Shown here piece after piece: positions 1 to 17,730 of a DNA stretch of 20,000 nt. The notes under the pieces were generated by a model. It was not told where the DNA came from and ran no database searches. It saw only the letters and a program-made list of their open reading frames with translations. The stretch is from IMG/VR virus record IMGVR_UViG_3300043410_000597. One strand, written 5' to 3'. Within the stretch, counting starts at the first letter, position 1. The number at the start of each line of letters is the position of its first letter. Both the position numbers and the translations under genes were made by a program. The DNA comes from an uncultured virus (IMG/VR IMGVR_UViG_3300043410_000597). Its lineage: Duplodnaviria; Heunggongvirae; Uroviricota; Caudoviricetes; Crassvirales.

Positions 1-162
1 GGCGAGGCTAAGACTACACGTGAGGCTACACTAATGAATGACGGAAACTTTGCAGAAATTAAATTTAATCAATCCACTATAGGCACAACGACTAAGAAAG
101 CGTTGGAGAATGCTTCTAGTAAAATTATTGTGCGGATGATTAAAAAGAAAATCTTTAAATGA
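1..162 (+). CDS. 3' end of an upstream gene (partial); resembles the C-terminus of CsgG-like envelope proteins
   Basis: Frame 1 is open from base 1: GEAKTTREATLMNDGNFAEIKFNQSTIGTTTKKALENASSKIIVRMIKKKIFK*. The TGA at 160-162 overlaps the next ATG (ATGA). The beta-strand plus 'F.QS.IG...KKALE.A' helix recalls CsgG-family C-termini, but only 53 aa are visible. Confidence 0.5.
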   Translation, partial: GEAKTTREATLMNDGNFAEIKFNQSTIGTTTKKALENASSKIIVRMIKKKIFK

Positions 163-1337
163 AATGGATAGTATTTATAGCCATACTTATCTTACCCACG
201 ATTATGTACGCACAAACACTTACGCAGGTGTTCGTGGATCCGTGCAGTGGCAAGGTAACAACTGTAGTGGTACCGCTCGCTGGTGGCAAGACTACCGTGG
301 TTTACCGAGGGCAGTACAAGGTAGTGACGGCAAACGATATTACAAGTGGAGCCCTGCAAGCGTGGATAAATGATTTAACAGTTAATTACCCTTGTCCACA
401 AGCAACCATTGCAGTAACGCAAACTGTGGCTAAGGCAGTACAACAAGCAGTAGCAGCGGCAACAACAGCAGCTACATCAACTGCAACAAGTGCAGCGACA
501 AGTGCAGCAACATCTGCGGCGACATCAGCAGCAGCACCTGCACCGGTAGTAGAAACAAAGACTGAGGCACCTGTTGCGACATCAGAATCAAAAACAGAAA
601 CTAAAACAGAAACTAAAAGTGAATCCAAAGAAGAAAAAAGCGAGTCCAAAAGCGACTCCAAGTCCAGTAAGAAAAGCGAGAGTAAAGCCAAGTCGTCTTC
701 GTCAAATCCAATTATTTATTCTTCGGATTTTACGGTCGCTCCGACTAGTGAAGTAACATCTATTATTGCTAGTGTTGGTATGAGTCAAGCCTCCTTGATG
801 GGCAACTCATCGTGGGGCATTAACTCTATGATATGGTCAACCTTTGACCAATTTGCACTAGGTGGTAGATATACCTTGATGAGCTTTAATCAAGGTAAGT
901 TAGAGTCAATCTCAAACTTTGGCGTTACAGGCGTTTATTTAGGTGGAAATGTGTTAGGCTTCGCAACAGCTGCTTACATCGTTCCTATGGGCAAGTATGG
1001 CACCACAGGAGCCAACTATACTTTATCGATTGCAGGAGCAAACGATGAGGCTAGTATATCCAATAATATATTACTATTCTACACCATTCCAATCAAGATA
1101 AATAAGTACGTATCAATGAGTCCTGACTTATACGTGTCAGGATCATCAACAGGTTATCTAACCAAGCAGAAAGTATTTGTGACTAGTAATGACATAGGCA
1201 TTTTAACAGGTGCCTCATTTGATATTGCACTAACCAAACGCTTCAAGTTTAACTTTGCTTTAAAGACAGGACTCAACACCAATCCATCTATCCCTCAGTC
1301 CTATCTTGGAATGATAGGCACCAAAATTAATTTGTAA
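159..1337 (+). CDS. Secreted protein, probable outer-membrane beta-barrel with an Ala/Thr/Ser- and Lys/Glu/Ser-rich linker
   Basis: Sec-type signal peptide (MKWIVFIAILILPTIMYA/Q). Small N-terminal domain with 2 Cys, then a low-complexity AATS and ESK linker. The last ~210 aa are alternating amphipathic strands ending YLGMIGTKINL. Confidence 0.6.
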   Translation: MKWIVFIAILILPTIMYAQTLTQVFVDPCSGKVTTVVVPLAGGKTTVVYRGQYKVVTANDITSGALQAWINDLTVNYPCPQATIAVTQTVAKAVQQAVAAATTAATSTATSAATSAATSAATSAAAPAPVVETKTEAPVATSESKTETKTETKSESKEEKSESKSDSKSSKKSESKAKSSSSNPIIYSSDFTVAPTSEVTSIIASVGMSQASLMGNSSWGINSMIWSTFDQFALGGRYTLMSFNQGKLESISNFGVTGVYLGGNVLGFATAAYIVPMGKYGTTGANYTLSIAGANDEASISNNILLFYTIPIKINKYVSMSPDLYVSGSSTGYLTKQKVFVTSNDIGILTGASFDIALTKRFKFNFALKTGLNTNPSIPQSYLGMIGTKINL

Positions 1338-1463: not shown

Positions 1464-1994
1464 ATGGAAATTTGGAAAGATGTTGTTGGCTATGAAGGAC
1501 ACTTTATGGTTAGCGAAAGTGGAAAAGTTAAATCATTAGATAGAAAATATAAAAGGTCAGATGGTTCTATATATCCTGTAACAGGAAAAGAACTAACTCC
1601 TTTTATTAGTAATGCCGGTTATAAAAGAATTGCACTCAGAAAAAATGGTAAACCAATGAAGTACTCTGTGCATAGATTAGTAGCTGAGGCATTTTTGCCT
1701 AAAGAAGAAGGTCGTGATTTTGTAAATCACTTGGATGGGGATAAATTAAACAACCATTATTCTAATCTAGAATGGGTATCTATGATTGAAAACAATTGTC
1801 ATAGATTTAATAAAATCAACACAACTAGCAGGTATACTGGAGTTACTTGGATAAAAGCAAAACAAAGATATGTCGCAGTTATGCAAATAAACGGTGTACA
1901 GAAAACAATTGGACATTTTTTAAATGAAGAAGATGCTTATGCTGCTAGATGTAAATATGAAAAGGATAATGGCATAATTAATAAGTATCTATAA
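1464..1994 (+). CDS. Free-standing NUMOD4-HNH-AP2 homing endonuclease
   Basis: NUMOD4 start (EIWKDVVGYEGHFMVSESGKVKS), HNH core (VHRLVAEAF...NHLDGDKLNNHYSNLEWVSMIENNCH) and AP2-like C-terminus (SRYTGVTW...YVAVMQING...IGHF.NEEDAYAAR). Confidence 0.9.
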   Translation: MEIWKDVVGYEGHFMVSESGKVKSLDRKYKRSDGSIYPVTGKELTPFISNAGYKRIALRKNGKPMKYSVHRLVAEAFLPKEEGRDFVNHLDGDKLNNHYSNLEWVSMIENNCHRFNKINTTSRYTGVTWIKAKQRYVAVMQINGVQKTIGHFLNEEDAYAARCKYEKDNGIINKYL

Positions 1995-2032: not shown

Positions 2033-5000
2033 ATGGCAAGAATTTCCACGTATCCTCGTGATTTAGATATAAATGGTCAAGACCGTTGGATTGGGTCGGC
2101 ATGGCAAACTCCAGATAAATTAACTAAGAACTTCACTGCAGATGGCGTAGCAGAATACTTTAACAAGGTAGGTATTATCGATACAGGTAGTTTCAACTGG
2201 TCATACAGAATGTATGCACCGACAGAATCTCAACCAGCGAAGACGTTTGAGTTAATTGACCATCCATTTGATACAGTAGATGTTATTGGACTTGAGGGTA
2301 CTATTAAGGTATCTTTCTTGTCTATGGGTAACACTGAGCCAGGAATATTTATTGAAGAAGTTTGGAACGACAAGATTATTCTTGTTAATCGCCCAGGCTT
2401 TCCTAGTGAATACGGATTATATAGAGTAACTGCTGTCGTTCAAGATGGCGACTATTACTTATTAGACTTAGATTTTATTGGCGGCCATTCGGGTATTGTT
2501 AACGAAGATGAGCCAGTTACATTCGGCTTATTTGCAGGTGTAAGTGGCACATCGGGTACAACAGGAACCTCAGGAACAAGTGGTACAACAGGAACCTCAG
2601 GAACTAGTGGTTCAGATGGTACAAGCGGTTCGTCAGGAACAACGGGTACATCAGGATCATCGGGAATAAGTGGAACAGACGGAACATCAGGTACAGACGG
2701 AACATCAGGTACATCAGGTACACGTGGCACATCAGGTACAAGTGGAACAAATGGTTCTGCGGGCACATCAGGTACACGTGGCACATCAGGTACGTCAGGC
2801 ATTGACGGTATCGATGGCACAGATGGTACGTCAGGAACTAGTGGAGTAAGTGGCACCGATGGCACAAGTGGAACATCAGGTACAACGGGTATCGATGGGA
2901 CAAGTGGCACAGATGGTACAGGAGGAACTAGTGGAAGTAGTGGAGTTAATGGTACATCAGGTACAGGGGGAACAAGTGGTACGGATGGTACGGGTGGCAC
3001 TTCCGGTACAGATGGTACAGGAGGAACATCAGGTACATCGGGTTCTAGTGGTTCATCAGGTATTGATGGTACTTCAGGGATAAATGGTACATCAGGAATT
3101 GATGGAACTAGTGGTTCATCAGGAAGTTCAGGTACATCTGCTACCTCAGGTACAGATGGCACAGGCGGTACGTCAGGTACGACAGGCACTAGTGGTACTG
3201 CAGGAACCTCAGGTACAACAGGTACTTCAGGTACAGGTGGTACATCAGGTGTCGACGGGGTTAGTGGAGGTCGTGTTTACTATTTTAATAACAGTCAATC
3301 ATCCTCTATTTCTCCATACAAAGTATTGGCTACTGAACCTACACTAGGTGCATTACAGACAATAACTGTTAGTATGGCTGGCAACCAACAAAATGTGTTG
3401 GTTCAAGAATTTATAACAGAACAATTAGGATTTACTATTATCCCATCAGGTGTACAAAGATTCCATCTTCATACATTAAAGCCTCAGGATAACGATAATA
3501 TACAGGTTTATATAACATTACAACTTGCTAATTCAGCAGGTACGCCATATGGCACATTAGCTACGTCATCTGCTAATACTTTAGCTTGGAACGGCACAGG
3601 TGTTATTGCAGAGACTACTTTAGACTTTGTATTCCCACATACGACAATTACTGCAACAGACCGCATGATTGTCAAGATTTATTACAATAACAATGTAAGT
3701 ACAGCAAAAACTGCAGAATGGTACACAGAGGATAGCGAGTACTCTTATGTAACTACATCAATTGCTGCGGCATCAGGTACAAGTGGTGTTAATGGTACTT
3801 CTGGTACATCAGGAGTAAGTGGCACATCAGGTACAACAGGTACTAGTGGCGTTAATGGAACATCTGGAACTGCAGGAACATCAGGAGCTGATGGTACTAG
3901 CGGTGTAAGTGGAACTAGTGGGGTGAGTGGCACATCGGGCGTAAATGGCACCAGTGGAATTGATGGGACAAGTGGTACTTCAGGAGTAAGCGGCACAAGC
4001 GGTAGTTCAGGAGCAAGTGGCACGTCAGGTGTGTCAGGTACCTCAGGTATCAACGGAACCTCCGGTGTAAACGGTACCTCAGGATTAAACGGTAGTTCTG
4101 GAACATCTGGTGCAAACGGTACATCTGGAACAAGCGGTACAACACCAGACACATCTTTATTTGTATTGAAGTCAGGTAGCACAATGACTGGTGCATTGGT
4201 TATTGATCCTGCAAACACGGGAGTAATTGGACTTGATGCAGCATCTAATACATTTAGATTACGTTCAGATAGTACCAATCCTTTTGCTCGTCAATTAACC
4301 ACTACAATGAATAGTGGTACATTGGTTAAGATGCAAGCGGCAGGGTATGGTGGAACATATGTTACGGACTTAGGATTTTATACATCATCTAACTCAGCAG
4401 TTAATAGCACGCCAAATATTTATTTAACAGGTGGAGATAATCGTGTAGGTATTAATACAACTACACCTGGATATACTTTAGATGTAAATGGAACGTCTTC
4501 TGCTCAATCAGTTTATATTAATGGAGACTCTACAAACGGTGGAGCATTAAGAATAAAACAATATGCAGCATCAGTTGCAAACGAAGATGGATATAACTCT
4601 ATTAGTACATTAAGCACCGGAGTTTTTTATTTTACTGCAGCTAAAACTGCACCTAATTTTAAAACTTTTGTTTTAAATCCTAATAGTTTAACAGATAATA
4701 CACTTAGAACTTATACACTTCCAAATGCTTCAGGTACAATTGCTTTAACTAGCGACATTCCAAGTGTTACAGGATATGTTCCATATACAGGTGCTACAGG
4801 TGCGGTGAATTTAGGTGCTTATGACTTAACGGTTAATTCAATAAAAGTTGGCTTAGGAGGTGGTAGTATATCTAGTAATACAGCACTAGGTGCTTCTACT
4901 TTAAATTCTAATACAACGGGAAGTGGTAATACTGCAGCTGGTAATTCTGCTCTTTACACTAATACAACAGGAGGAAGTAACTCTGCATTTGGAACTTATT

Positions 5001-7405
5001 CGCTTTTATTTAATACTACAGGAGGTCTTAATACTGCAATAGGCGGTTCTGCTCTTTATTCTAATACAACAGGAAATAGCAATACAGCAACAGGTATAAA
5101 TTCTCTTTATTCTAATACTACAGGCGGAGGTAACTCTGCATTTGGCGTTCAGGCTCTTTACACCAATACAACAGGTATTTATAATACGGCAATAGGTAGT
5201 AATGCTCTATATTCTAGCACAACATCAAACTATAATACTGCTTTAGGTAACAATGCTCTTTATGCAAATACGACAGGAGCAAGTAATACCGCAATAGGAA
5301 ATGGTGCAGGGCAATCTATAACAACAGGTAGTAATAATGTTATTATTGGTGGATATGGTGGAACTACCACTATGTCCAATAATATAGTTTTATCAGATGG
5401 TGCAGGAAATATAAAGTACCAATGGAACGGAACTAACAATACTATTTATGGAGCAACAACACTTACGGGAGCTTTAAGTGGTACAACTGCTACGTTTTCG
5501 AGTAGTTATTCAAATACTAGCGATTTGCAAATTGTTGCTGATGGAAACATATCAGGAATTAATATACGTTCAACTTCAGGAGGAAGGTTGTCGATTTTAC
5601 AAAATTTCATAGCTCCTAATACAACTTCATTTTTAACATCAACAGGAACAAGTAATCCATCAGTAGAAGCTATTAGAATAGCTAATGGGACAGGAGTTAT
5701 TACATTTGCTAGTAATATTATAGCTTATACAACTGGATTAAATAGTGATTTTAATGGAGGAGCATTAATTGCAAGAGGAGCAGGAAGTACATTAAAATAT
5801 ACACAGATTGGTTATGACACTACTGGTAATTATGGATGGATTCAAGCACTAGAACAAGGTACTGCTTATCGGAATTTAATTTTAAATGGTGCAGGAGGCA
5901 ACGTAGGCATCGGAACGGCTTCGCCATTTGCTATTGCAGGCGTTAATTTATCATTAGATAATTCAACAGATTCAGCTATTCAATTAGGAGTAGGGGGAAC
6001 AAGAACAGGACAATTGTATGCTTCTGGTTCACAAGTTAGATTATCAGCAGTAGCTAATGTTCCATTATTATTTTATACTAATGATACATTACGTTTAACT
6101 TTAGCAGCTTCAACTGGAGCAGCTACTTTTGTAAGTAGTATTACAGCTGGAGGAGATTTAACATTAAATGGGAATAGAACTATTTATCTTACTAACACTG
6201 GAGTTGCGGCAGGCGGAATAGTTTTTTATAATAGTAGTACAAGTTTAATTAAATCTGGGATTGGTTCATATTATAATATAGCTGACCAAGGAAATTTAGA
6301 GTTTTTAGCTGGAGGAAATTCAACTAAAATGGTTTTAGATTCATCTGGAAGATTAGGAATCGGAACAACTGCCTTATCTGGAACAGGTTCAAATCTACAA
6401 GTTGAACAATCGGGTACTCCAAATACAGTAGCAATTAGAAGAGGAGATTCTTCTAATACTGGTGCAGCTAGAATTTTATGGCAAGCATACAATGCTTCTT
6501 CTGTCATTCAAAACACGGCTATCATTGAAGCTGGATTAGATGGAAGTTCTACTGAAGGTTATTTAGCTTTATCAGCAGGAACTCCAGGAACGCCACAAGT
6601 AAAACTTACATATGCAGGTAGATTATTAGTTGGTGCAACAGCATCTGTTGATGCATTAACAAGAATGAGAGTTAATTATTCTGCTGATTCTTGCTATTTT
6701 GATATTACATCTGGTGCTGATGCAGTATTACGATTGGGAGGAACATACGGACAAATTACAAATACAACAGGAGCTTTATATATTTCCAATGCAGGTGCAA
6801 CAGGAGATATGATTTTCAGAACAGGTAGTACGACTGAAAGAATGCGTCTTACTTATGATGGTCGTTTATTAGTAGGCACAACTTCTACCTATGATGCAAG
6901 AATAACTTGTTATGCAGAAAATTCAACAAGTGCAAACTATACTTTTAGAGCAGTTAATACAAATGGTCAAGGTATTTTTTCAGTAAGAAATGATGGTCAA
7001 TTTAGAACAGGAGATGGTCCTAGTTCTCCTTATTATTTAACTGTAACTGGTAGAGCTATATTTTCAGATTCAACAGGTGTTCTTGGTTATGTGGCTTCAG
7101 TAAGAGAGGCAAAAACTAATATAAATACAATAGAAAATACTTCTTGGATTTATGATTTAAAACCTGTTACATTTAATTACCGCAAAAAAGATAATAATAA
7201 TAATTATACAGAAGAATTTTATAATGAAATTTCTTACGGTTTAATTGCTGATGAAGTAGAAAAAGTAAATAAAGATTTAGTATTCTACGATAGCGTAAAT
7301 GGTAAAAAAGAATTAAGAGGTGTAGAATATGAAAAGTTAGTACCTGCTTTGGTTAAAGTAGTTCAGGAATTAAAACAAAAAATTGACATTTTAGAAAATA
7401 AATAA
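2033..7405 (+). CDS. Long tail fibre / virion fibre protein with Gly-Thr-Ser repeats, 17-aa beta-helical repeats and a C-terminal peptidase S74 intramolecular chaperone
   Basis: 1790 aa. Two GxS tracts, NTAxGxxAL repeats and repeated 'G(N/R)(V/L)GIGT' / 'GRLLVG' fibre modules. The C-terminus SVREAKTNI...LKPVTFNY...YGLIADEV...GVEYEKLVPALVKVVQEL is typical of S74 chaperone domains. Confidence 0.85.
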   Translation: MARISTYPRDLDINGQDRWIGSAWQTPDKLTKNFTADGVAEYFNKVGIIDTGSFNWSYRMYAPTESQPAKTFELIDHPFDTVDVIGLEGTIKVSFLSMGNTEPGIFIEEVWNDKIILVNRPGFPSEYGLYRVTAVVQDGDYYLLDLDFIGGHSGIVNEDEPVTFGLFAGVSGTSGTTGTSGTSGTTGTSGTSGSDGTSGSSGTTGTSGSSGISGTDGTSGTDGTSGTSGTRGTSGTSGTNGSAGTSGTRGTSGTSGIDGIDGTDGTSGTSGVSGTDGTSGTSGTTGIDGTSGTDGTGGTSGSSGVNGTSGTGGTSGTDGTGGTSGTDGTGGTSGTSGSSGSSGIDGTSGINGTSGIDGTSGSSGSSGTSATSGTDGTGGTSGTTGTSGTAGTSGTTGTSGTGGTSGVDGVSGGRVYYFNNSQSSSISPYKVLATEPTLGALQTITVSMAGNQQNVLVQEFITEQLGFTIIPSGVQRFHLHTLKPQDNDNIQVYITLQLANSAGTPYGTLATSSANTLAWNGTGVIAETTLDFVFPHTTITATDRMIVKIYYNNNVSTAKTAEWYTEDSEYSYVTTSIAAASGTSGVNGTSGTSGVSGTSGTTGTSGVNGTSGTAGTSGADGTSGVSGTSGVSGTSGVNGTSGIDGTSGTSGVSGTSGSSGASGTSGVSGTSGINGTSGVNGTSGLNGSSGTSGANGTSGTSGTTPDTSLFVLKSGSTMTGALVIDPANTGVIGLDAASNTFRLRSDSTNPFARQLTTTMNSGTLVKMQAAGYGGTYVTDLGFYTSSNSAVNSTPNIYLTGGDNRVGINTTTPGYTLDVNGTSSAQSVYINGDSTNGGALRIKQYAASVANEDGYNSISTLSTGVFYFTAAKTAPNFKTFVLNPNSLTDNTLRTYTLPNASGTIALTSDIPSVTGYVPYTGATGAVNLGAYDLTVNSIKVGLGGGSISSNTALGASTLNSNTTGSGNTAAGNSALYTNTTGGSNSAFGTYSLLFNTTGGLNTAIGGSALYSNTTGNSNTATGINSLYSNTTGGGNSAFGVQALYTNTTGIYNTAIGSNALYSSTTSNYNTALGNNALYANTTGASNTAIGNGAGQSITTGSNNVIIGGYGGTTTMSNNIVLSDGAGNIKYQWNGTNNTIYGATTLTGALSGTTATFSSSYSNTSDLQIVADGNISGINIRSTSGGRLSILQNFIAPNTTSFLTSTGTSNPSVEAIRIANGTGVITFASNIIAYTTGLNSDFNGGALIARGAGSTLKYTQIGYDTTGNYGWIQALEQGTAYRNLILNGAGGNVGIGTASPFAIAGVNLSLDNSTDSAIQLGVGGTRTGQLYASGSQVRLSAVANVPLLFYTNDTLRLTLAASTGAATFVSSITAGGDLTLNGNRTIYLTNTGVAAGGIVFYNSSTSLIKSGIGSYYNIADQGNLEFLAGGNSTKMVLDSSGRLGIGTTALSGTGSNLQVEQSGTPNTVAIRRGDSSNTGAARILWQAYNASSVIQNTAIIEAGLDGSSTEGYLALSAGTPGTPQVKLTYAGRLLVGATASVDALTRMRVNYSADSCYFDITSGADAVLRLGGTYGQITNTTGALYISNAGATGDMIFRTGSTTERMRLTYDGRLLVGTTSTYDARITCYAENSTSANYTFRAVNTNGQGIFSVRNDGQFRTGDGPSSPYYLTVTGRAIFSDSTGVLGYVASVREAKTNINTIENTSWIYDLKPVTFNYRKKDNNNNYTEEFYNEISYGLIADEVEKVNKDLVFYDSVNGKKELRGVEYEKLVPALVKVVQELKQKIDILENK
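2537..3265 (+). repeat. Gly-X-Y tract 1: 81 in-register triplets (consensus GTS, 9-bp period)
   Basis: Counted from the translation. Gly occupies every third position except one Ala (ATS at 3140). No proline. Confidence 0.95.
3776..4144 (+). repeat. Gly-X-Y tract 2: 41 uninterrupted triplets (GTS alternating with GVN/GVS and variants)
   Basis: Counted from the translation. No proline. Confidence 0.95.
4877..5335 (+). repeat. Nine tandem 17-aa (51-bp) repeats, consensus NTAxGxxALYxNTTGxx
   Basis: Units start at 4877, 4928 ... 5285. They resemble adhesin/fibre beta-helical (YadA-head-like) repeats. Confidence 0.9.
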
Positions 7406-7406
7406 T

Positions 7407-7784
7407 ATGACAACAACTTACGAATGGATAGTTACCCAAATGGAAACAGCACCCTCATTGGATGGATTAACAGATGTAGTAGTAACAGTACATTGGCGTC
7501 GTAACGCTGTGGCAGTAGATGGTGATAAGACATATTTTAGCGATGTGTATGGGGCAATGGCCTGTCAAACGCCATCAGGAACAGACTTCACTGCTTACTC
7601 TGACTTGAAATTTGAGCAAGTGTGTGGCTGGTTAGATGCAGGTAATGATGTGGAGGCATTGAACGCAAATCTTGATGCTCAGATTGAGAATCAGATTAAC
7701 CCTCCAATCATTGTATTGCCTAATCCGTGGGCTACTCCTACTTTGCAAGAAGAAATTGTTGCAGGAGACCAATCTATTGTTTAA
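7407..7784 (+). CDS. Conserved phage protein downstream of the fibre; possible tail-fibre accessory protein
   Basis: Starts 1 nt after the fibre stop. Acidic 125-aa protein with motifs YEWIV..M....DGL.DVV..VHWR, F..Y..L...QV.GW and a P-rich end, as seen next to S74 fibres. Confidence 0.7.
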   Translation: MTTTYEWIVTQMETAPSLDGLTDVVVTVHWRRNAVAVDGDKTYFSDVYGAMACQTPSGTDFTAYSDLKFEQVCGWLDAGNDVEALNANLDAQIENQINPPIIVLPNPWATPTLQEEIVAGDQSIV

Positions 7785-7801
7785 CTTTACAAAAAAATAT
7801 A
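7782..7801 (+). promoter_or_regulatory. Promoter/leader-like motif TAACTTTACAAAAAAATATA
   Basis: TAnnTTTA variant of the -7 element. A near-identical copy lies at 10630-10649. Confidence 0.45.
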
Positions 7802-7805
7802 TATC

Positions 7806-8075
7806 ATGAAACTAAACTTTAATTTTAATCTAGTCGATTTAGACGGCAAAGAAATTGACAATACTAATGCAGGAAAGTTAATTGCTAATTCATTAGTGCA
7901 ACAATCTAAGGGTGATGCTCTTAAGTTTTGGGAGTGGGCTTTGGCTCTTAACAAAGGAGAAGAGCTAGACCTTGACTCATCTGATCAAGAGACTTTGAAG
8001 AACTTCATCAAGGATAGCGAAAACTTTGCTATTATTGCTAAGGCTCAGTTATTGAAAGTTCTTAAGAAGGACTAG
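7806..8075 (+). CDS. Small hypothetical helical protein; possible fibre assembly chaperone
   Basis: 89-aa ORF with an A-rich leader, MKLNFNFNLVDLDGKEI. Function inferred from position only. Confidence 0.65.
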   Translation: MKLNFNFNLVDLDGKEIDNTNAGKLIANSLVQQSKGDALKFWEWALALNKGEELDLDSSDQETLKNFIKDSENFAIIAKAQLLKVLKKD

Positions 8076-10079
8076 TCTATTAATTACATCATCAGCAGTT
8101 ATACTCCTCTGGCATTCAAATTGTCGAGGAGTATTTTTGTATATGGGGCAAAATTCCCATGTCTTATCGAATTTAAAGTTCTGATTATTCCAGCATCCAT
8201 TACAAACATTCTTATTTGTGATGCGTATGCACTCAAACTCGTGGTCCTCTTCAGCAAAGTTATTTATCATAACTACTTGCTTGCCTAAAGCCCAAGCAAG
8301 CCAGCTCACACCACTTCCAAGTCCAATAAAGAAATCACTGTGGTCAATTAACGCCATTGTGCGATAGATATCAGTATTTATAATCTGCTCACAGTTGTCG
8401 AACGGATTCTCTTCAAGCGATACGTTAATTACTTTGTAACCTTTCTCGTGTAAATAGTTTATCACTCCTTGCCATCCCTCCTTTGTCCAAAACTTACAGC
8501 CTGATGTGGAGTTGGTAGCAATTGTTACATACTTCTGTGTAGGTAAAGTAATCTCAGCCTCGTATCTTAACTTAGGTCGAATCTCCTCAAAGTCAAGTCC
8601 AAGTATCTTAGTTGCTGCCTCTTGTAACTTAATAGTATTAGGCAATACTGGCTCTTTATTTGAATCATAGAACCATCCAATGTTATACTGAGCGTAGATA
8701 TTAGGAACCACTGTTCCTGGTTCTACTAGCTCTATCTCAGGCATATCCAATATCTTATTTAAGAATGTAGATAGGATTACTTTACACTTGTGTTTCTTTT
8801 GGAATTCTAAAGCATATGGAGCCCAGGCAATTGTATCGCCTAATGAACTACTCGATATAGCGATGTACACACGCTTACCTTCTAGGTCAAGTACGTTATC
8901 GTGAATTAGTTCACCATTCATGTAGACTTTGCTGTGCCACTTAGTATAGTATTGTCTATTTAGTTTGACCCAACAGTTTGATTCGATAGTATTCTCGTAT
9001 ACTAGCTTGTCGCCATCAAAGTATTGCACCTTAAAGTCGGCTTTTAGTCCTGACTTAATTTCTAGGTACGGTTGACCAACAAAGTGTTGGATGATGGTTA
9101 CATCTTGCTCTTGTTTTTCTAGGGTCATTACTTTGTTGTAGAATGCGATTTGCTTCTCGGTAAATATCTCTGTGGTATTATCTGTAGGTACATTGTAATT
9201 ACATCGAATGGATCTAAGATTCGTTCCGATAGGCTGAATGTACTTATCAAACATTGAGCCATATTGTGGCAAGTTGTGAGCTATAATTGGCTTGCCAAAA
9301 GATATCGCTTCACGTAATACTAGTGGATTACATTCCCACGTAGAATTGAACATAAAGATATCTGCCATCTTAATGAACCTATGTGCATCATTTCTCTCCA
9401 ACCACACGTGAACATTAGATGGCAAATCCTTCATTAATGGCTCCCAATAATGCTTGAAATTTACAGCTTGGTTTCCGACAAAATGAAAGTCCATCTCAGG
9501 ATACTTTCTAGCTATCTCAATCCCCTCAGCTTGATTCTTACCAGGAGTCCAAAGACCTACGTTTACTACGTTTATTTTATTTTTATAAAAAGGATTCTCA
9601 TATGTCTCACTAGTTCTGTCATCAATAGGGAACTCAATCACTTCTTTGTAAGATGGTGATGAAGCGAATGTCTCTAAGTGATATGGCGTGCAGAAGTAAT
9701 ACGCATCAGGATGAAATATCTTTTCTTTGTCGTGATTAAACGATACATCGTGGCACGTCTCCACAATTCGGTAGTTTCGGTCTTCTCGATACAACTCAGA
9801 AATCATATCACGATTAAAGCGTTCAGCTGGCTCGTGAATGTGAACAATGTCAGGATTGAATTTTGCGATGATGTTGAACAACCCCATCTTGTCCTCGTGT
9901 AAGGTATGAAAAGGAACAAGACTTTTAATGGCATTACGTTGCACGACATAGTCTAAACTATGGCATTGATACTCTACTACCTCAATCTCAAATGTCTTGT
10001 AAAGAGTTTGAACACTCTTTAAAACAAAACCGGGCATTCCCCCGGTCGAACAATGGCTTAGTAGTAATAGTAATTTCAT
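8049..10079 (-). CDS. Two-domain glycosyltransferase: N-terminal GT4 (GT-B) fused to an Aah/TibC (BAHT)-family protein O-heptosyltransferase-like domain
   Basis: GT4 part: HCSTGGMP, VGLWTPGKNQ, and an E-x7-E motif in DIFMFNSTWECNPLVLREAISFGKPII. BAHT-like part: SLGDTIAWAPYALEFQKKHKCKV, STSGCKFW, FFIGLGSGVSWLAWALGK and Cys cluster CNGCWN...CP...FEC. Start moved to ATG 10079, which forms an ATGA overlap with the upstream HNH stop. Confidence 0.85.
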   Translation of the reverse strand: MKLLLLLSHCSTGGMPGFVLKSVQTLYKTFEIEVVEYQCHSLDYVVQRNAIKSLVPFHTLHEDKMGLFNIIAKFNPDIVHIHEPAERFNRDMISELYREDRNYRIVETCHDVSFNHDKEKIFHPDAYYFCTPYHLETFASSPSYKEVIEFPIDDRTSETYENPFYKNKINVVNVGLWTPGKNQAEGIEIARKYPEMDFHFVGNQAVNFKHYWEPLMKDLPSNVHVWLERNDAHRFIKMADIFMFNSTWECNPLVLREAISFGKPIIAHNLPQYGSMFDKYIQPIGTNLRSIRCNYNVPTDNTTEIFTEKQIAFYNKVMTLEKQEQDVTIIQHFVGQPYLEIKSGLKADFKVQYFDGDKLVYENTIESNCWVKLNRQYYTKWHSKVYMNGELIHDNVLDLEGKRVYIAISSSSLGDTIAWAPYALEFQKKHKCKVILSTFLNKILDMPEIELVEPGTVVPNIYAQYNIGWFYDSNKEPVLPNTIKLQEAATKILGLDFEEIRPKLRYEAEITLPTQKYVTIATNSTSGCKFWTKEGWQGVINYLHEKGYKVINVSLEENPFDNCEQIINTDIYRTMALIDHSDFFIGLGSGVSWLAWALGKQVVMINNFAEEDHEFECIRITNKNVCNGCWNNQNFKFDKTWEFCPIYKNTPRQFECQRSITADDVINRLVLLKNFQ

Positions 10080-10558
10080 TTTTTTATTTTCCATATAAAT
10101 CCACCTGCGTGAGACATGAGGTTTTGTGTATTAAGAGAAATACTTTTTCTGTCTACTTTAGTTGCTTTGTATGCATCTAATATTGACCTGTATTCGGCAA
10201 CAAATTCACCTTCTTTTGTATATTGTATTACAGGTGTTTTTCTATTATTTATAAGACCAGTTCTGTGTGCGTGATATTTATTCTCACTATCTGTAACCCA
10301 CTCTAAATTTTCAATATTATTATTTAAAGGATTGCCATCAATATGATTTATTTGCGGCTTATTATGTGGGTTAGGAATAAATGCCTTAGCAATTAACCTA
10401 TGCACAAATTGATGTTTCTTTTTATTATTTTTCCACAACTCAACCATAAGTCTACCCTGATTAACAGTTTGTTTTATTTTATGGCACGTAGAAGTATTTC
10501 TTATGACTCCTTGATGATTAATCATGTAATTTGGAAACTCCTCTATTAATTTTTCCAT
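10076..10558 (-). CDS. HNH homing endonuclease with a NUMOD1-like C-terminal HTH
   Basis: HNH core VHRLIAKAFIPNP.NKPQINHIDGNPLNNNIENLEWVTDSENKYH; C-terminal PVIQYTKEGEFVAEYRSILDA...AGGFIWK. Confidence 0.9.
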   Translation of the reverse strand: MEKLIEEFPNYMINHQGVIRNTSTCHKIKQTVNQGRLMVELWKNNKKKHQFVHRLIAKAFIPNPHNKPQINHIDGNPLNNNIENLEWVTDSENKYHAHRTGLINNRKTPVIQYTKEGEFVAEYRSILDAYKATKVDRKSISLNTQNLMSHAGGFIWKIKK

Positions 10559-10589
10559 TTTAATATTATTATTGTGTATAATGATAATC

Positions 10590-10597
10590 CAAAATTA
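10590..10597 (-). promoter_or_regulatory. -7 promoter element TAATTTTG driving the inverted HNH-glycosyltransferase unit
   Basis: CAAAATTA on the + strand equals TAnnTTTG on the - strand, about 31 nt upstream of ATG 10558. Confidence 0.6.
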
Positions 10598-10629
10598 CGT
10601 AATATTACGCCATAATAAAATATAATTAG

Positions 10630-10649
10630 TACTTTTACAAAAAAATATA
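10630..10649 (+). promoter_or_regulatory. Promoter/leader-like motif TACTTTTACAAAAAAATATA upstream of the head-packaging operon
   Basis: TAnnTTTA variant, divergent from the - strand promoter. Second copy of the motif at 7782. Confidence 0.5.
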
Positions 10650-10654
10650 ATACA

Positions 10655-10909
10655 ATGGATAAATTAACACAAGACGAGTTGGATCGTTTCAGAGCCGCTC
10701 ATACAGAAATCAGAAATCTTCGCAACGCTTTAGCAGATGCCGAGATTACAATTCACAATTCCAACGTAGAGAAACAATCTATTTTAGCTCAGTTAGATAC
10801 AGCTGGTACAACACACGTTGCCATTCAGCAAGAACTACACGCTAAGTACGGAGATATCACGATTGACTTTGCGACAGGAGAAATCAAGAACAAAGATGGT
10901 AATTCGTAA
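10655..10909 (+). CDS. Small coiled-coil hypothetical phage protein
   Basis: 84 aa, heptad-like, ending KYGDITIDFATGEI. A-rich leader. Confidence 0.75.
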   Translation: MDKLTQDELDRFRAAHTEIRNLRNALADAEITIHNSNVEKQSILAQLDTAGTTHVAIQQELHAKYGDITIDFATGEIKNKDGNS

Positions 10910-11114
10910 AATATCAGTTGGTGCAGACTACAAGAATGCAATGAACTATATGCATAATCAAGTAGTCTTACAAGGTAACTATAGAATACATTTGATTCGT
11001 CAGACCGAAGCAGGAGATATTGAAATCTACATTGAGGCTCACGATGAAGTGGTTTTATGGAAAAAGATTAATGGCAATATGCCATTCTTAATTGAATATA
11101 ATATAGATTTCTAA
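10896..11114 (+). CDS. Small hypothetical phage protein (72 aa)
   Basis: More plausible start at ATG 10896 (MVIRKISVGADYKNAMNY...), overlapping the previous gene by 14 nt. The stop is 1 nt before the next ATG. Confidence 0.7.
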   Translation: MVIRKISVGADYKNAMNYMHNQVVLQGNYRIHLIRQTEAGDIEIYIEAHDEVVLWKKINGNMPFLIEYNIDF

Positions 11115-11115
11115 T

Positions 11116-11679
11116 ATGAAGTCCCCATTTTACTTTATAGTGCAACCCCGTGATGGCAAGAGATATGACAACACGAGGGGAGAGCTCATTATTTCTACAT
11201 CGAAAGAAGACCACCTTGCTACTATGCGTGAGGCTGTTGTTATCTCTACGCCTATTGGATACGAGGGTCCTATTGAACCAGGTGATACAGTCATTGTGCA
11301 TCACAATACCTTTAGGTTGTATTACGATATGCGTGGTAGAGAGAAATCTGCTTGGAATTATTTCCGAGAGGACTTGTACTTTATTGATGATCCATATGCA
11401 TACAAGAAGCCGGGTGCTGATTGGATTGGTATTGGTCGCTATGTTTTCATATCTCCGGTAGAAAATTATAGTACAGGCATACTTACTGCGGACGCAGAGA
11501 AGCCTCTTGTAGGCACGATAAAGTATCCAAACGAAGAAGTACTAGCACTAGGATTAAAAGAGGGTGACACGGTCACGTTTGAGCCTGAGAGCGAGTATCC
11601 ATTCTATATTGATGGTGAGAAAGTGTACCGTATGTATACTAAGAATCTAACAATTAAATTAGATGAACAAAATAACTGA
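11116..11679 (+). CDS. GroES/Cpn10-like protein, apparently two tandem GroES-like domains
   Basis: Two similar beta-rich halves: FIVQP...GELII...AVVISTP...IEPGDTVIVH and VFISP...TGIL...GTIKY...LKEGDTVTF. Confidence 0.6.
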   Translation: MKSPFYFIVQPRDGKRYDNTRGELIISTSKEDHLATMREAVVISTPIGYEGPIEPGDTVIVHHNTFRLYYDMRGREKSAWNYFREDLYFIDDPYAYKKPGADWIGIGRYVFISPVENYSTGILTADAEKPLVGTIKYPNEEVLALGLKEGDTVTFEPESEYPFYIDGEKVYRMYTKNLTIKLDEQNN

Positions 11680-11944
11680 GTTAAAGAAACGCATCATTGA
11701 CTCTGGATATAAAGCCGTTGAAGAGTTAATCAAAGTTGCTGAGGAGAAGATTGTTACCCACATGGATGATGACTTGTCTGCAGACAAATTAAAGAACGCA
11801 GCCGCAGCAAAGAAGTTAGCCATTATGGATGCTTTTGAGATTCTTAAAAGAGTCGAGGAGGAGAATAATATTATTGAGGGAGTAGTTGGAAACTCTGCAC
11901 CTACCAACCGTGGGTTTGCAGAACAAAGAGCAAAGACTAAATGA
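11663..11944 (+). CDS. Helical hypothetical protein; candidate terminase small subunit
   Basis: 93 aa, directly upstream of the large terminase with an ATGA overlap. Function inferred from position. Confidence 0.5.
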   Translation: MNKITELKKRIIDSGYKAVEELIKVAEEKIVTHMDDDLSADKLKNAAAAKKLAIMDAFEILKRVEEENNIIEGVVGNSAPTNRGFAEQRAKTK

Positions 11945-14154
11945 GTTTATTCTATATTGATGAGTCTAATGTTCCTGAGAAGATTCTTGCAAAGAGAAAT
12001 GCAAAGAAGGATTGGGAGTATGGTTGGGACCCTGAGTACGACTTTGTGGTCGTGTCAAAAGATGGCACGATTGGAGAGGTGTACAATATCAGTGGTCTAA
12101 GGGTTGCTCTACCACTAGCTCCTGAGAAAGTTGAATATGATGGCAACAAGTGGAAAGCGACCGAGCTTCCTAAAGAACTATCTCGCATTAAGACTATCTT
12201 TGATTGGAACCGTCGTGACAACTCATTTAAGTCTCAATGGGTAGACTACATCGAGAAGGAGTTTGATAGACGTGAATTAGGTTATTGGTTTATAAACAAT
12301 TCCGAGAAGACTTATATCACAGGTGCACATTATATGTATCTGCAATGGTCAAAGACTGACGTAGGTCATCCTGACTTCCGTGAATCAAATAGAATATTCT
12401 TTTTATTTTGGGAAGCGTGTAAGGCTGACAGCAGATGCTTTGGTATGTGCTATCTTAAGAACCGTCGTTCAGGTTTCTCTTTTATGGCCTCCTCGGAAGC
12501 CGTAAACATTGCAACCTTAGCCAAGGATGCTCGTATAGGTTTAACATCTAAGACAGGTCCCGATGCTAAGAAGATGTTTACAGACAAAGTTGTTCCAATT
12601 GCGAACAACTACCCGTTCTTTTTTCAACCAGTGCGTGATGGTATGACAACTCCAAAGACGGAGCTTGCCTTCCGTGTGCCAGCTTCTAAGATTACTCGTA
12701 AGAATATGCACGAGGAAAACGAGGAAGAGATTGATGGATTGGATACAACTATTGACTGGCGTAACACAGCAGACAACTCCTATGATGGAGAAAAATTATT
12801 ATATTTGGTTGAGGATGAGGCTGCTAAGTTAGAGCGTCCTATGAACATAGAGAACGGTTGGCGTGTCAGAAAAACTTGTCTTCGTCTAGGTGCTAGGATC
12901 ATCGGTAAGTGTATGATGGGATCAACATCTAATGCACTAGATAAAGGTGGAGAAAACTATAAACGTATTTACTATGACTCGAACGTCAAGAAAAGAAACC
13001 AGAATGGTCAGACTATATCGGGTCTATATTCGCTCTTTATTCCAATGGAGTATAACTTTGAGGGATATATTGACGAGTACGGTCACGCAGTCCTAGAGAC
13101 ACCAGAGAAACCTGTGCGTTCAGCAGAGGGTACTTGGATAACACAAGGCGTAATTGAGTATTGGAACAATGAGGTGGCATCGCTAAAAGCTAACCCTGAT
13201 GCACTAAACGAATTCTATCGTCAGTTCCCTAGAACAGAATCACACGCTTTCCGTGATGAGACTAAGTCATCTCTATTTAACTTGACTAAAATCTATCAGC
13301 AGATAGATTATAATGATAGCTTAATCCAAGACCACGTTCTAACACGTGGCTACTTTCATTGGGCTAATGGAGAAAAAGATACTAGAGTTGTTTGGACACC
13401 TGACAAGAATGGTCGGTTCCTAGTATCTTGGATACCGGGACCAGGCATCAATAATAATTATATTACTAAGAATGGGAATAGATATCCAGGTAATGAGCAT
13501 ATTGGTGCGTTTGGCTGTGACCCCTATGACATCTCAGGTGCTACCTTTGGTGGATCAAATGGCTCACTGCACGGATTAACCAAGTTTAATATGACAGGTG
13601 CACCATCCAATCAATTCTTTTTAGAATACATTGCTCGTCCACAGACAGCAGAGATATTCTTTGAAGAGGTACTGATGGCTTGCGTGTTCTATGGTATGCC
13701 TATTCTTTGTGAGAATAACAAAGCACGTTTGCTTTACCACTTTAAGAATAGAGGCTATCGTGGGTTCTCAATGAACCGTCCTGATAAGCACGCACATAAA
13801 TTGTCGTTCACAGAAAGAGAGATTGGTGGTATACCGTCATCAAGTGAAGATATTAAGCAAGCACACGCCACGGCAATCGAGACATACATTGAGCGTTTTG
13901 TGGGATTAGACATGGAGGGTAACTACCGTCAGCCTGATGAAATAGGCGATATGCCGTTCAATAAGACACTTCAAGACTGGGCTAGATTCGACGTAAACGA
14001 CAGAACTAAATTTGATGCGTCAATTAGTTCGGGATATGCTATTATGGCAAATCAAAAGCACGTATATTTGCCTGAGAAAAAAGAGTCAAAAATAAGCATT
14101 AAATTTGCAACTTACGATAACACTGGTTCCTTCAGTAGAATTAACAAGATATGA
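11941..14154 (+). CDS. terL: Terminase large subunit
   Basis: Walker A-like KNRRSGFS, Walker B LLYLVEDE, motif III GSTSN, RNase H-like nuclease FGCDPYD, LCENN and KFDASISSG. Directly precedes the portal gene. Confidence 0.9.
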   Translation: MSLFYIDESNVPEKILAKRNAKKDWEYGWDPEYDFVVVSKDGTIGEVYNISGLRVALPLAPEKVEYDGNKWKATELPKELSRIKTIFDWNRRDNSFKSQWVDYIEKEFDRRELGYWFINNSEKTYITGAHYMYLQWSKTDVGHPDFRESNRIFFLFWEACKADSRCFGMCYLKNRRSGFSFMASSEAVNIATLAKDARIGLTSKTGPDAKKMFTDKVVPIANNYPFFFQPVRDGMTTPKTELAFRVPASKITRKNMHEENEEEIDGLDTTIDWRNTADNSYDGEKLLYLVEDEAAKLERPMNIENGWRVRKTCLRLGARIIGKCMMGSTSNALDKGGENYKRIYYDSNVKKRNQNGQTISGLYSLFIPMEYNFEGYIDEYGHAVLETPEKPVRSAEGTWITQGVIEYWNNEVASLKANPDALNEFYRQFPRTESHAFRDETKSSLFNLTKIYQQIDYNDSLIQDHVLTRGYFHWANGEKDTRVVWTPDKNGRFLVSWIPGPGINNNYITKNGNRYPGNEHIGAFGCDPYDISGATFGGSNGSLHGLTKFNMTGAPSNQFFLEYIARPQTAEIFFEEVLMACVFYGMPILCENNKARLLYHFKNRGYRGFSMNRPDKHAHKLSFTEREIGGIPSSSEDIKQAHATAIETYIERFVGLDMEGNYRQPDEIGDMPFNKTLQDWARFDVNDRTKFDASISSGYAIMANQKHVYLPEKKESKISIKFATYDNTGSFSRINKI

Positions 14155-16583: not shown

Positions 16584-16593
16584 TTTTTATTAT

Positions 16594-16601
16594 TACTTTT
16601 G
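16594..16601 (+). promoter_or_regulatory. -7 promoter element TACTTTTG upstream of the scaffold/capsid genes
   Basis: TAnnTTTG match ending 19 nt before ATG 16621. Confidence 0.65.
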
Positions 16602-16620
16602 TGCAACTAAATTAAATTAA

Positions 16621-17712
16621 ATGGATAATATTCAAGTAAAACTTGTAGACTTTGAAGAAAAGTCTGTGCAAGAAATCGAGCAACAGTTGCTTGATGAGCA
16701 CGAACAAAAAATGGCTGAAGATGTAGCTCCTGTAGAGGAGTCACCTATAGAAGAGCCACCTGTAGTAGAGTCACCACAATTTGGCGACAACGACGTTCTT
16801 TCATATTTAAAAACAAAATTCAACAAGGAGGTAAACTCTTTGGATGAACTATTTGTAGAGAAACCACAACAACAGGAGTTACTTCCTGAAGATGTAAATG
16901 CTTTCTTAAAATTCAAGAAAGAGACAGGGCGTGGTTTAGAAGATTTCTATCGTGTTAACCAAGATTTTTCTAAGGTTAACCCAGAAAGACTTCTAGCTGA
17001 CTATATGCGTGAGATTAATCCTGATTTTGATGATGAGGATATCGCATTCGAATATGAATCAAAGTTTGCATACGATGAGGATATTGATGACGAGAAAGAA
17101 ATCAAACGCAAGAAGTTAGCACTTAAAAAAGAACTTGGCAAGGCGTCAAAGTACTTTGAAGAACAAAAGGAAAAATATAAAGCTCCCCTTGAGTCGAGGA
17201 TGGAAGCTACTATTCCTGCTGAGGACAGAGAAGCTTTGGAATCTTACAAGCAATATATCAGCCAATCTACTGCTATGCAGCAAGACCAGGCTAAAAAGTC
17301 GGAGTACTTTATGAATAAGACAAACGAATTATTCTCTGATGAATTCAAAGGTTTTGATTTCAAAGTTGGAGATAAGGAAGTATCTTATAAACCTGGAACT
17401 CCAGAGCAGCTGAAAGCTCAACAAACAGACATTTCCAAATTCTTCACAAATTTTGTTGATGAAAATGGATACATTAAGGATGCTAAACAGTATCACAAAA
17501 CAATTGCTGCGGCAATGAACCCTGATGCAATGGCCAAATTCTTTTATGATATGGGCAAAGCAGATGCGATTGATGATTCAGTTCGTCAAAGTAAGAACAT
17601 CGATATGAGCGTTAGAAATGCTCCACAGAATATCGAGAAAGGTGGGTTTAAAGTAACGGCATTGGATAGTGATCACGGTAACAGACTTAAGATTAAATCT
17701 TTAAAAAACTAA
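16621..17712 (+). CDS. Probable capsid scaffolding / assembly protein
   Basis: Highly acidic, helical 363-aa protein between the portal and major capsid genes. Confidence 0.65.
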   Translation: MDNIQVKLVDFEEKSVQEIEQQLLDEHEQKMAEDVAPVEESPIEEPPVVESPQFGDNDVLSYLKTKFNKEVNSLDELFVEKPQQQELLPEDVNAFLKFKKETGRGLEDFYRVNQDFSKVNPERLLADYMREINPDFDDEDIAFEYESKFAYDEDIDDEKEIKRKKLALKKELGKASKYFEEQKEKYKAPLESRMEATIPAEDREALESYKQYISQSTAMQQDQAKKSEYFMNKTNELFSDEFKGFDFKVGDKEVSYKPGTPEQLKAQQTDISKFFTNFVDENGYIKDAKQYHKTIAAAMNPDAMAKFFYDMGKADAIDDSVRQSKNIDMSVRNAPQNIEKGGFKVTALDSDHGNRLKIKSLKN

Positions 17713-17730
17713 AACCAAAAACACAAAACA

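Follow-up and report, generated by a model that had tools for sequence, protein, structure and literature searches.

The stretch of DNA analysed here, 20,000 nucleotides of an uncultured virus of the Crassvirales (IMG/VR record IMGVR_UViG_3300043410_000597) and called the window throughout, is part of the genome of a freshwater tailed phage. It carries a tail-fibre gene on the plus strand (2033-7405), coding for a protein of 1790 residues with long collagen-like tracts of Gly-Thr-Ser triplets, and, on the minus strand, a gene for a two-domain glycosyltransferase of 681 residues (8049-10094). The two genes are convergent and their stops lie 643 bp apart, which agrees with the distance of about 650 bp given in a preliminary description of the sequence. 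The C-terminal half of the enzyme is related to the bacterial autotransporter heptosyltransferases (BAHT) of E. coli, known from the pairs TibC-TibA and Aah-AIDA-I (PDB 4RAP and 4RB4). Judged from comparison of sequences, the best explanation of the locus as a whole is probably that the phage O-glycosylates its own collagen-like fibre with this enzyme, the fibre being the proposed acceptor.

The two-domain glycosyltransferase

Since the alignments of the relatives begin at residue 6 of the open reading frame (ORF), Met6 at position 10079 is the likely start of the enzyme, which has no signal peptide. Its C-terminal half (residues 357-673; 8076-9026, minus strand) was identified as a TibC/Aah-type domain with 247.3 bits on the NCBIfam model TIGR04414 (hepto_Aah_TibC), for which the curated cut-off is 200, as against at most 26 bits on the models for lipopolysaccharide (LPS) heptosyltransferases. 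TibC (PDB 4rap) is matched at E 1.4e-44 with 30% identity. In an AlphaFold model built on 40 homologues (predicted local distance difference test, pLDDT, 88.9), an N-terminal beta-barrel, with strands at residues 332-401, and a GT-B fold are present, and Foldseek placed TibC chains at the top (E 1e-28; template modelling (TM) score 0.79-0.83 when normalised to TibC; about 373 columns aligned to chains of 381-390 residues). As had been supposed in the preliminary description, the domain thus groups with TibC/Aah; it does not group with the LPS enzymes of family GT9.

That description covered the C-terminal half, and the N-terminal half (residues 6-330; 9105-10079, minus strand) is added here as a GT4-type domain. 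It scores 43.1 bits on PF00534, with a gathering score of 26.4, and the next Foldseek matches, which fall on this half, are the GT4 enzymes BshA, PglA and PimA. The pair E254-x7-E262, a signature of GT4 enzymes, is invariant in all 40 phage homologues.

The residues of the C-terminal domain were mapped by a pairwise alignment to TibC and by an alignment of 40 phage homologues with identities down to 52%. According to the structural study of TibC (PMC4358343), Asp-110 is the catalytic base, Thr-226 and Lys-230 touch the beta-phosphate, Trp-305 the heptose O4 and Arg-286 the adenine, the last four being described as highly conserved and required, while Cys-339, 342, 358 and 370 form an iron finger which, together with the beta-barrel, was tied to the handling of the protein substrate. 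In the phage enzyme, Asp-110 corresponds to D420 of the motif SLGD, and this Asp is present in 40/40 phage homologues and in 149/149 domain sequences (148 representatives and the query). T530, K534 and W598, the counterparts of Thr-226, Lys-230 and Trp-305, are also invariant (40/40), as are C631, C634, C649 and C661, which correspond to the four Cys of TibC and are predicted to form the iron finger (40/40). At the position of Pro-300, a residue for stereoselectivity, Gly is present in the enzyme of the window and Ser in 28/40 homologues; Aah has Ser.

The hallmarks of BAHT that had been claimed for this half were therefore found in part: the Asp, the three donor residues, the four Cys and the beta-barrel are retained, but the thumb and Arg-286 are not. 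Because both belong to the features described as defining for BAHT, we regard the enzyme as a variant of the family rather than as an ordinary member. By its sequence it is classified as a thumbless, GT4-fused variant of TibC/Aah, from a distinct, mostly multidomain and partly thumbless branch. A search of 1.84 billion representatives identified 670 sequence clusters (50% clustering) with E values no higher than 1e-30. All of the best 150 relatives score above the 156 bits of TibC itself, and 130 of the 148 usable among them are longer than 450 residues, a length which implies fusion to other domains. In the loci of four close relatives (L009, L011, L022 and L026), the enzyme match spans 2.7-2.9 kb compared to 2.0 kb, so that an insertion is present in the gene or at its end; in L011, a 269-residue ORF follows an ORF of 675 residues.

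The collagen-like tail fibre

Among the PHROG families, the product of the fibre gene matches those of tail fibres and of collagen-like minor tail proteins, with E values as low as 6.6e-38. Its role in the virion is a family assignment, based on the tail-fibre matches and on a C-terminal Peptidase_S74 intramolecular chaperone domain (residues 1691-1750; 7103-7282, plus strand; PF13884, 28.3 bits, cut-off 22). No signal peptide was predicted for the fibre, and PDB sequence searches with its N-terminal domain and with residues 705-1790 gave no match. From the N terminus, the protein consists of an anchor, two Gly-Thr-Ser tracts around a globular insert, a block of 17-residue repeats, a long shaft rich in Ser, Thr, Asn and Gly, and the chaperone domain.

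The first collagen-like tract (residues 169-414; 2537-3274, plus strand) comprises 81 triplets in two runs, residues 169-369 and 373-414, and contains no Pro; the second (residues 582-704; 3776-4144, plus strand) comprises 41 triplets. The preliminary description had reported 122 Gly-X-Y triplets, most of them with Ser or Thr, and the recount by script gave the same number, with Ser or Thr in 104 of the 122. GTS itself occurs 56 times, X is Thr in 83/122 triplets and Y is Ser in 75/122, and none of the 122 triplets has Pro, Lys or Glu at X or Y. On the Pfam model Collagen (PF01391), the fibre scores 140.8 bits.

The nine Thr/Asn-rich repeats of 17 residues described earlier were also recovered, in register, at residues 949-1101 (4877-5335, plus strand; pattern NTAxGxxALxxNTTGxx). 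On the DNA level, tandem repeat arrays with 64-85% identity to this block are present in about two dozen of the 401 Flavobacteriaceae genomes sampled, which suggests that phage fibres and surface proteins of the host have a repeat module in common or exchange it with each other.

Co-variation of enzyme and fibre type

Full-length homologues of the enzyme, with 50-100% identity, were obtained from 78 viral loci on contigs of 4 to 326 kb, and the enzyme-centred count was limited to the 22 of them that are flanked by 9 kb or more on either side. A Ser/Thr-repeat protein was flagged in 21 of these 22, namely a Gly-Thr-Ser collagen in 12, a protein with 15- or 17-residue repeats in 5 and a Pro/Thr-rich protein in 4. 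The ORFs with 15- or 17-residue repeats that were tested (3/3) extend N-terminally beyond the locus into 210, 122 and 186 triplets, nearly all with Ser or Thr. Among five records tested for a collagen tract elsewhere, those of three of the four Pro/Thr-rich loci and of L059 and L072, four contain one (L058, L067, L054 and L072), and none was found in the record of L059, which is 24% complete. The exception is L017, where a non-collagen fibre lies beside the enzyme, and the same applies to its sister L004, which has a short flank; each of these two records holds a collagen ORF elsewhere that is 88% identical to the tract of the window.

As a control, 80 loci were fetched through the terminase, and the 18 enzyme-free loci of at least 15 kb were counted. 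A collagen tract was present in 0/18 and any flagged repeat in 2/18 (16-residue repeat proteins), so that the co-occurrence with Ser/Thr-repeat proteins considered in the preliminary description, above all with Gly-Thr-Ser collagens, is far more frequent for the enzyme-bearing loci than for their enzyme-free relatives. Neither a TIGR04414 match nor a collagen tract was obtained for five records of the terminase group, of which CheckV rates four as 100% and one as 54% complete. A further, independent anchor is the gene at 159-1337, with 30 loci that have at least 9 kb downstream. Here, enzyme and collagen were found together in 6 loci, collagen alone in 1, the enzyme alone in 0 and neither in 23 (Fisher p 1.2e-5); another Fisher test on the association of enzyme and fibre gave p 3.8e-8, both values being uncorrected for relatedness and thus descriptive.

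Two relatives, L261 and L263, have the same gene order as the window (the product of 159-1337, fibre, DUF7936 protein, small ORF, GroES-like protein, terminase), and their fibres share the N-terminal domain of the window's fibre (E 2e-46). In both, the fibre has no Gly-X-Y run of four or more, and the enzyme and an 89-residue protein encoded next to it in the window are both missing. When loci were found through the collagen tract, 15/76 contained a strong enzyme match, and 8/19 of those of at least 19.5 kb. Among 50,697 deposited phage records, only four gave enzyme matches. Taken together, there is strong, purely comparative evidence that the enzyme and the Gly-Thr-Ser collagen fibre appear and disappear together in related phages.

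Proposed glycosylation of the fibre, its acceptor and its sugar

The family relationship of the enzyme, the conservation of its catalytic residues and the co-variation of its gene with the fibre type are given by the data. From these we infer which protein is the acceptor, in which order the two transfers take place, which sugar is used (homology points to heptose, which is doubtful here) and how the fibre is affected. According to the proposed mechanism, the phage would produce a soluble cytoplasmic enzyme with two transferase domains, by which its own tail fibre would be O-glycosylated before or during fibre assembly. The TibC-like domain would transfer the first sugar onto Ser, possibly also Thr, of the proline-free (Gly-Thr-Ser)n tracts, and the GT4 domain, if it works like the retaining GT4 enzymes, would extend it by a second one. 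The dense sugar coat would most likely stabilise or stiffen the triple helix, with shielding as a secondary effect. According to PMC11923368, collagen-like helices that lack hydroxyproline owe their stability to proline, to salt bridges of Lys with Asp or Glu, or to glycosylated Thr, and the peptide (Gly-Pro-Thr)10 remains a random coil as long as its Thr residues are not galactosylated. Since Pro, Lys and Glu, the usual stabilisers, are absent from the tracts of the phage fibre, it is the sugar coat that would stabilise the triple helix here.

The idea of a phage fibre glycosylation system, put forward in the preliminary description, is thus supported comparatively by the family assignment and by the co-variation of enzyme and fibre. 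A repurposed enzyme-substrate pair had also been proposed, and this applies to the enzyme, which is a relative of TibC, but not to the fibre, which is no relative of the autotransporters. A more far-reaching version, which is only tentatively put forward, would make the enzyme a collagen maturation factor, thumbless and probably dimeric, whose di-sugar coat would allow the proline-free (Gly-Thr-Ser)n to fold; the sugar would not be heptose in hosts free of the heptose pathway, and the system would be kept by a widespread group of aquatic phages.

Across the lineages compared, the collagen tract is the common denominator, which makes it the likely acceptor. TibC acts on Ser and not on Thr (PMC4358343), and Ser stands at Y in 75/122 triplets. 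The 17-residue repeats were considered as the main acceptor and down-weighted, since similar arrays are present in Flavobacteriaceae without a TibC-type enzyme and the enzyme co-varies with the collagen tract. Among the 401 sampled Flavobacteriaceae genomes, the sole match to a TibC-type enzyme is a small contig of a metagenome-assembled genome (MAG), homologous to the enzyme gene of the window and probably phage-derived, and the other genomes gave none (0/400).

Several observations weigh against the fibre glycosylation proposed here. The support is purely comparative. The co-variation counts are phylogenetically non-independent, fibre and enzyme could be one cassette inherited together for reasons unrelated to a pairing of enzyme and substrate, and 11 of the 19 long collagen-tract loci have no enzyme within 10 kb. 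The substrate of TibC itself is a folded autotransporter, whose beta-helix repeats are modified on Ser within a 12-mer ring of the enzyme; as described in PMC4358343, this ring is built by a beta-hairpin thumb (Phe-265/Val-266), and thumb mutants are dimeric and inactive. In the phage enzyme the thumb is deleted, with a 10-residue gap opposite residues 260-271 of TibC and a uniform loop of 16 residues in 40/40 homologues. The model shows no hairpin at this position, and a loop of at most 18 residues, that is, a thumbless form, is present in 84/149 domain sequences. A 12-mer ring of the TibC type is therefore unlikely for this enzyme. The position of Arg-286 is occupied by T579, with Thr in 37/40 homologues, and Arg is present in only 33/149 domain sequences.

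Further points of this kind concern the sugar and the host. The genes for rfaE domain II and gmhA are absent from five complete close relatives of 61-68 kb, from which, as for other genome-wide statements, the picture for the lineage of the window was drawn. In 101 sampled Flavobacteriaceae genomes, gmhA was above the cut-off in none (0/101) and reached E 1e-20 or better in only three; it is present in two other Bacteroidota MAGs. The host assignment is itself only indirect, drawn from MAG binning and from a weak likeness of the DNA to phages of Flavobacterium and Maribacter. In the distant 110-kb record L075, heptose-pathway-like genes (at 12266-17249) lie between the enzyme and a fibre with collagen and 15-residue repeats. 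They resemble genes for heptose-7-P kinase, heptose-1-P adenylyltransferase and ADP-heptose epimerase, and the same stretch has resemblances to an HAD phosphatase, an APS kinase and a NoeE-like sulfotransferase, all below the curated cut-offs; gmhA was not found in this record. Because no genes for ADP-heptose were found and Arg-286 is lost, heptose appears doubtful as the sugar in the lineage of the window, provided that the host belongs to the Flavobacteriaceae. Of the Aah/TibC-type system proposed in the preliminary description, the homology to TibC accordingly stands, but the heptose is in doubt.

Alternative explanations

It is unlikely that the enzyme glycosylates another protein, either a host surface protein or the exported 'stalked barrel' protein of 392 residues encoded at 159-1337 (plus strand), although the latter has features that make it a candidate. 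Its signal-peptide-like N-terminus, its stalk rich in Ser, Thr, Ala and Lys, with TSAA and Ser-Lys-Glu-rich (SK/SE) low-complexity tracts, and its conserved, beta-rich C-terminal 210 residues form a layout that recalls an autotransporter, the classical type of TibC substrate. A homologue is located near the enzyme also in the distinct 114-kb phage L077, and none is present in five enzyme-free relatives which are complete or nearly so. However, no enzyme was found in 24 of the 30 loci that have a homologue of this gene and at least 9 kb downstream, and among all 44 viral loci with such homologues, most of those with enough flank are without this enzyme. The enzyme follows the collagen tract and not this protein, whose fold prediction (pLDDT 35) is unusable.

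Fibre and enzyme might also form a mere recombination cassette, the enzyme having a role unrelated to the fibre or being inactive here. The block of fibre, DUF7936 gene, 89-residue gene and enzyme is indeed conserved in one piece in lineages whose enzymes are 55-100% identical, genes for homing HNH endonucleases sporadically flank it, and a long distance separates the enzyme gene from the collagen gene in the 326-kb record G007. This explanation is nevertheless quite unlikely: the catalytic residues of both domains do not vary among 40 homologues with identities as low as 52%, a sign of selection on activity, and the association recurs across phages of 57 to 326 kb with different accessory enzymes. 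A non-protein acceptor, such as LPS or capsule of the host, with a change of its surface, or phage DNA, with protection from restriction, would fit with the roles in LPS, capsule and DNA that are well known for phage glycosyltransferases (PMC12619734), with GT9 and GT4 being classical LPS-core families, and with the PHROGs class of the GT4 half, 'moron, auxiliary metabolic gene'. It is very unlikely in view of the scores of the C-terminal domain, which lie at 247 bits on the model of the protein-glycosylating TibC/Aah and at no more than 26 on the LPS heptosyltransferase models, and of the retained iron finger and beta-barrel with their link to protein-substrate handling (PMC4358343). Pfam and PHROG profile scans identified no base-modification genes in the window, and the joint loss of enzyme and collagen tract in L261 and L263 would be left unexplained by a non-protein acceptor.

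Comparison with known glycosylation systems

To our knowledge, no other role has been described for the TibC/Aah family than the maturation of virulence adhesins in Proteobacteria. The phage enzyme shares with TibC and Aah a homologous catalytic domain (30% identity; TM score of about 0.8 normalised to TibC), including the beta-barrel, the catalytic Asp, the Thr/Lys/Trp donor contacts and the four-Cys iron finger, and, like them, it is a cytoplasmic enzyme, here by prediction, which is encoded beside a highly repetitive, Ser-rich protein. Unlike TibC and Aah, it is fused to a GT4 domain, lacks the thumb and does not conserve Arg-286. Its neighbour is a collagen-like fibre with an S74 chaperone domain in place of an autotransporter beta-helix, no source of ADP-heptose was found in the phage lineage, and the family was not found in the presumed host family (0/400).

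In mycobacteriophages, structural proteins were shown to be modified by glycosyltransferases which the phages themselves encode (Freeman et al. 2023, Cell Host Microbe; cited in PMC12619734), and according to PMC12619734, these are so far the only phages for which glycans on the particle have been measured. The candidate system described here has in common with them phage-encoded glycosyltransferases for the phage's own structural proteins. It differs in that glycans were measured there on the C-termini of capsid and tail-tube subunits, whereas here the putative target is a collagen-like fibre and the enzyme belongs to another family.

For collagen-like proteins, a viral example is provided by the giant virus Mimivirus, with glycosylated collagen-like fibrils and virus-encoded collagen-like proteins and glycosylation enzymes. 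Compared to the phage, this is a eukaryotic virus with hydroxylysine-linked sugars and other enzyme families. The enzymes that glycosylate the collagen-like regions of BclA from the Bacillus anthracis exosporium and the cuticle collagen of a vent worm are not known to be related to TibC. Both BclA and the Thr-galactosylated vent-worm collagen contain O-glycosylated collagen-like regions with Thr/Ser-rich Gly-X-Y repeats, a composition shared by the phage fibre, and O-glycosylation there replaces hydroxyproline as stabiliser of the triple helix, according to PMC11923368. In contrast to the phage tract with its proline-free GTS, their repeats contain proline (GPT).

In a literature search with subscription journals outside its scope, no paper on a TibC-type enzyme in phages was found, and as far as searched, the pairing of such an enzyme with a collagen-like fibre in phages is unpublished.

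Neighbouring genes, phage and host

Two small genes lie between fibre and enzyme in the window. The first, directly after the fibre gene, codes for a DUF7936 protein of 125 residues (7407-7784, plus strand) and is also kept in syntenic enzyme-free relatives, which indicates that it travels with the fibre. The second codes for an acidic protein of 89 residues with no family assigned (7806-8075, plus strand), and its 3' end overlaps the 3' end of the enzyme gene. It was identified in 24 enzyme-bearing loci, compared to one enzyme-free locus, and may act together with the enzyme or with the collagen fibre.

On both sides, the block is flanked by free-standing genes for HNH/NUMOD homing endonucleases, at 1464-1994 (plus strand) and, upstream of the enzyme, at 10076-10558 (minus strand). 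The latter is present in only 5/50 related loci, and metatranscriptome and metagenome contigs run from 10055 directly to 10616 without it. Contigs from two metatranscriptomic runs of one study, with at least 85% likeness, span parts of the 5' end of the fibre gene, the 89-residue gene and positions 8037-10055 of the enzyme gene; they were not counted as evidence, since such libraries can contain DNA and contigs cannot show expression. A scan of 7300-11200 for promoters and terminators remained at shuffle level (17 compared to 15.3 and 3 compared to 1.9), Bacteroidota promoters being outside the models of the scan. Further downstream, a GroES-like protein of 187 residues (11116-11679, plus strand; PHROG co-chaperonin, E 1.7e-19) is encoded just upstream of the terminase; in the related, uncultured podovirus-type genome MW202828.1, a gene for chaperonin-10 is annotated as well as groEL.

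In distant phages, the enzyme has extra N-terminal methyltransferase or pyruvyl-transferase domains. Its neighbours there include FkbM and class I methyltransferases, sulfotransferases, GT2, GT8 and GT9 enzymes, a pyruvyl transferase, a DegT aminotransferase, 2OG-Fe(II) oxygenases and a radical SAM protein, and these accessory enzymes point to elaborate glycans, as expected for glycan building. In the cultured Microcystis phage Mel-JY01 (PP395634.1), a homologue of 1226 residues directly follows a Ser-rich 'structural protein'. Beside the enzyme region of this phage (locus L166, 1-2298), two ORFs consist nearly completely of repeats of the Pro-Glu-Val-Pro-Leu-Val type and are located on the strand opposite to the structural genes.

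The genes for the terminase large subunit, portal and capsid-type proteins are located at 11941-19146 (PHROG family matches, E 1e-104 to 9e-170), and the DNA of this region is 67.6% identical to MW202828.1. Short parts of the DNA show weak similarity to Flavobacterium and Maribacter phages, and a 9.5-kb viral record contains an enzyme gene identical to that of the window. The host is presumably a member of the Flavobacteriaceae, to judge from the weak phage DNA similarity, from MAG binning, in which the MAG considered is a Lutibacter of this family, and from the comparison of the repeat arrays. A host link by clustered regularly interspaced short palindromic repeats (CRISPR) was rejected: matches of 28-31 nt with 91-96% identity were found in four Flavobacteriaceae genomes, and since no direct repeats flank them, they were judged to be chance.

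Implications

The data provide evidence for a large and diverse phage-borne branch of the TibC/Aah family, paired with collagen-like fibres, and most of its best 150 relatives are multidomain fusions. This raises the question of which sugar is used by a TibC-like enzyme where the heptose pathway is not found. The enzyme and its repeat would form a compact pair for making glycosylated collagen-like materials. For the phages themselves, the results point to a common and so far unrecognised way by which aquatic phages may build and protect their receptor-binding fibres, and if the enzyme were indeed a collagen maturation factor, a glycan-dependent collagen fold would be maintained by a widespread group of aquatic phages.

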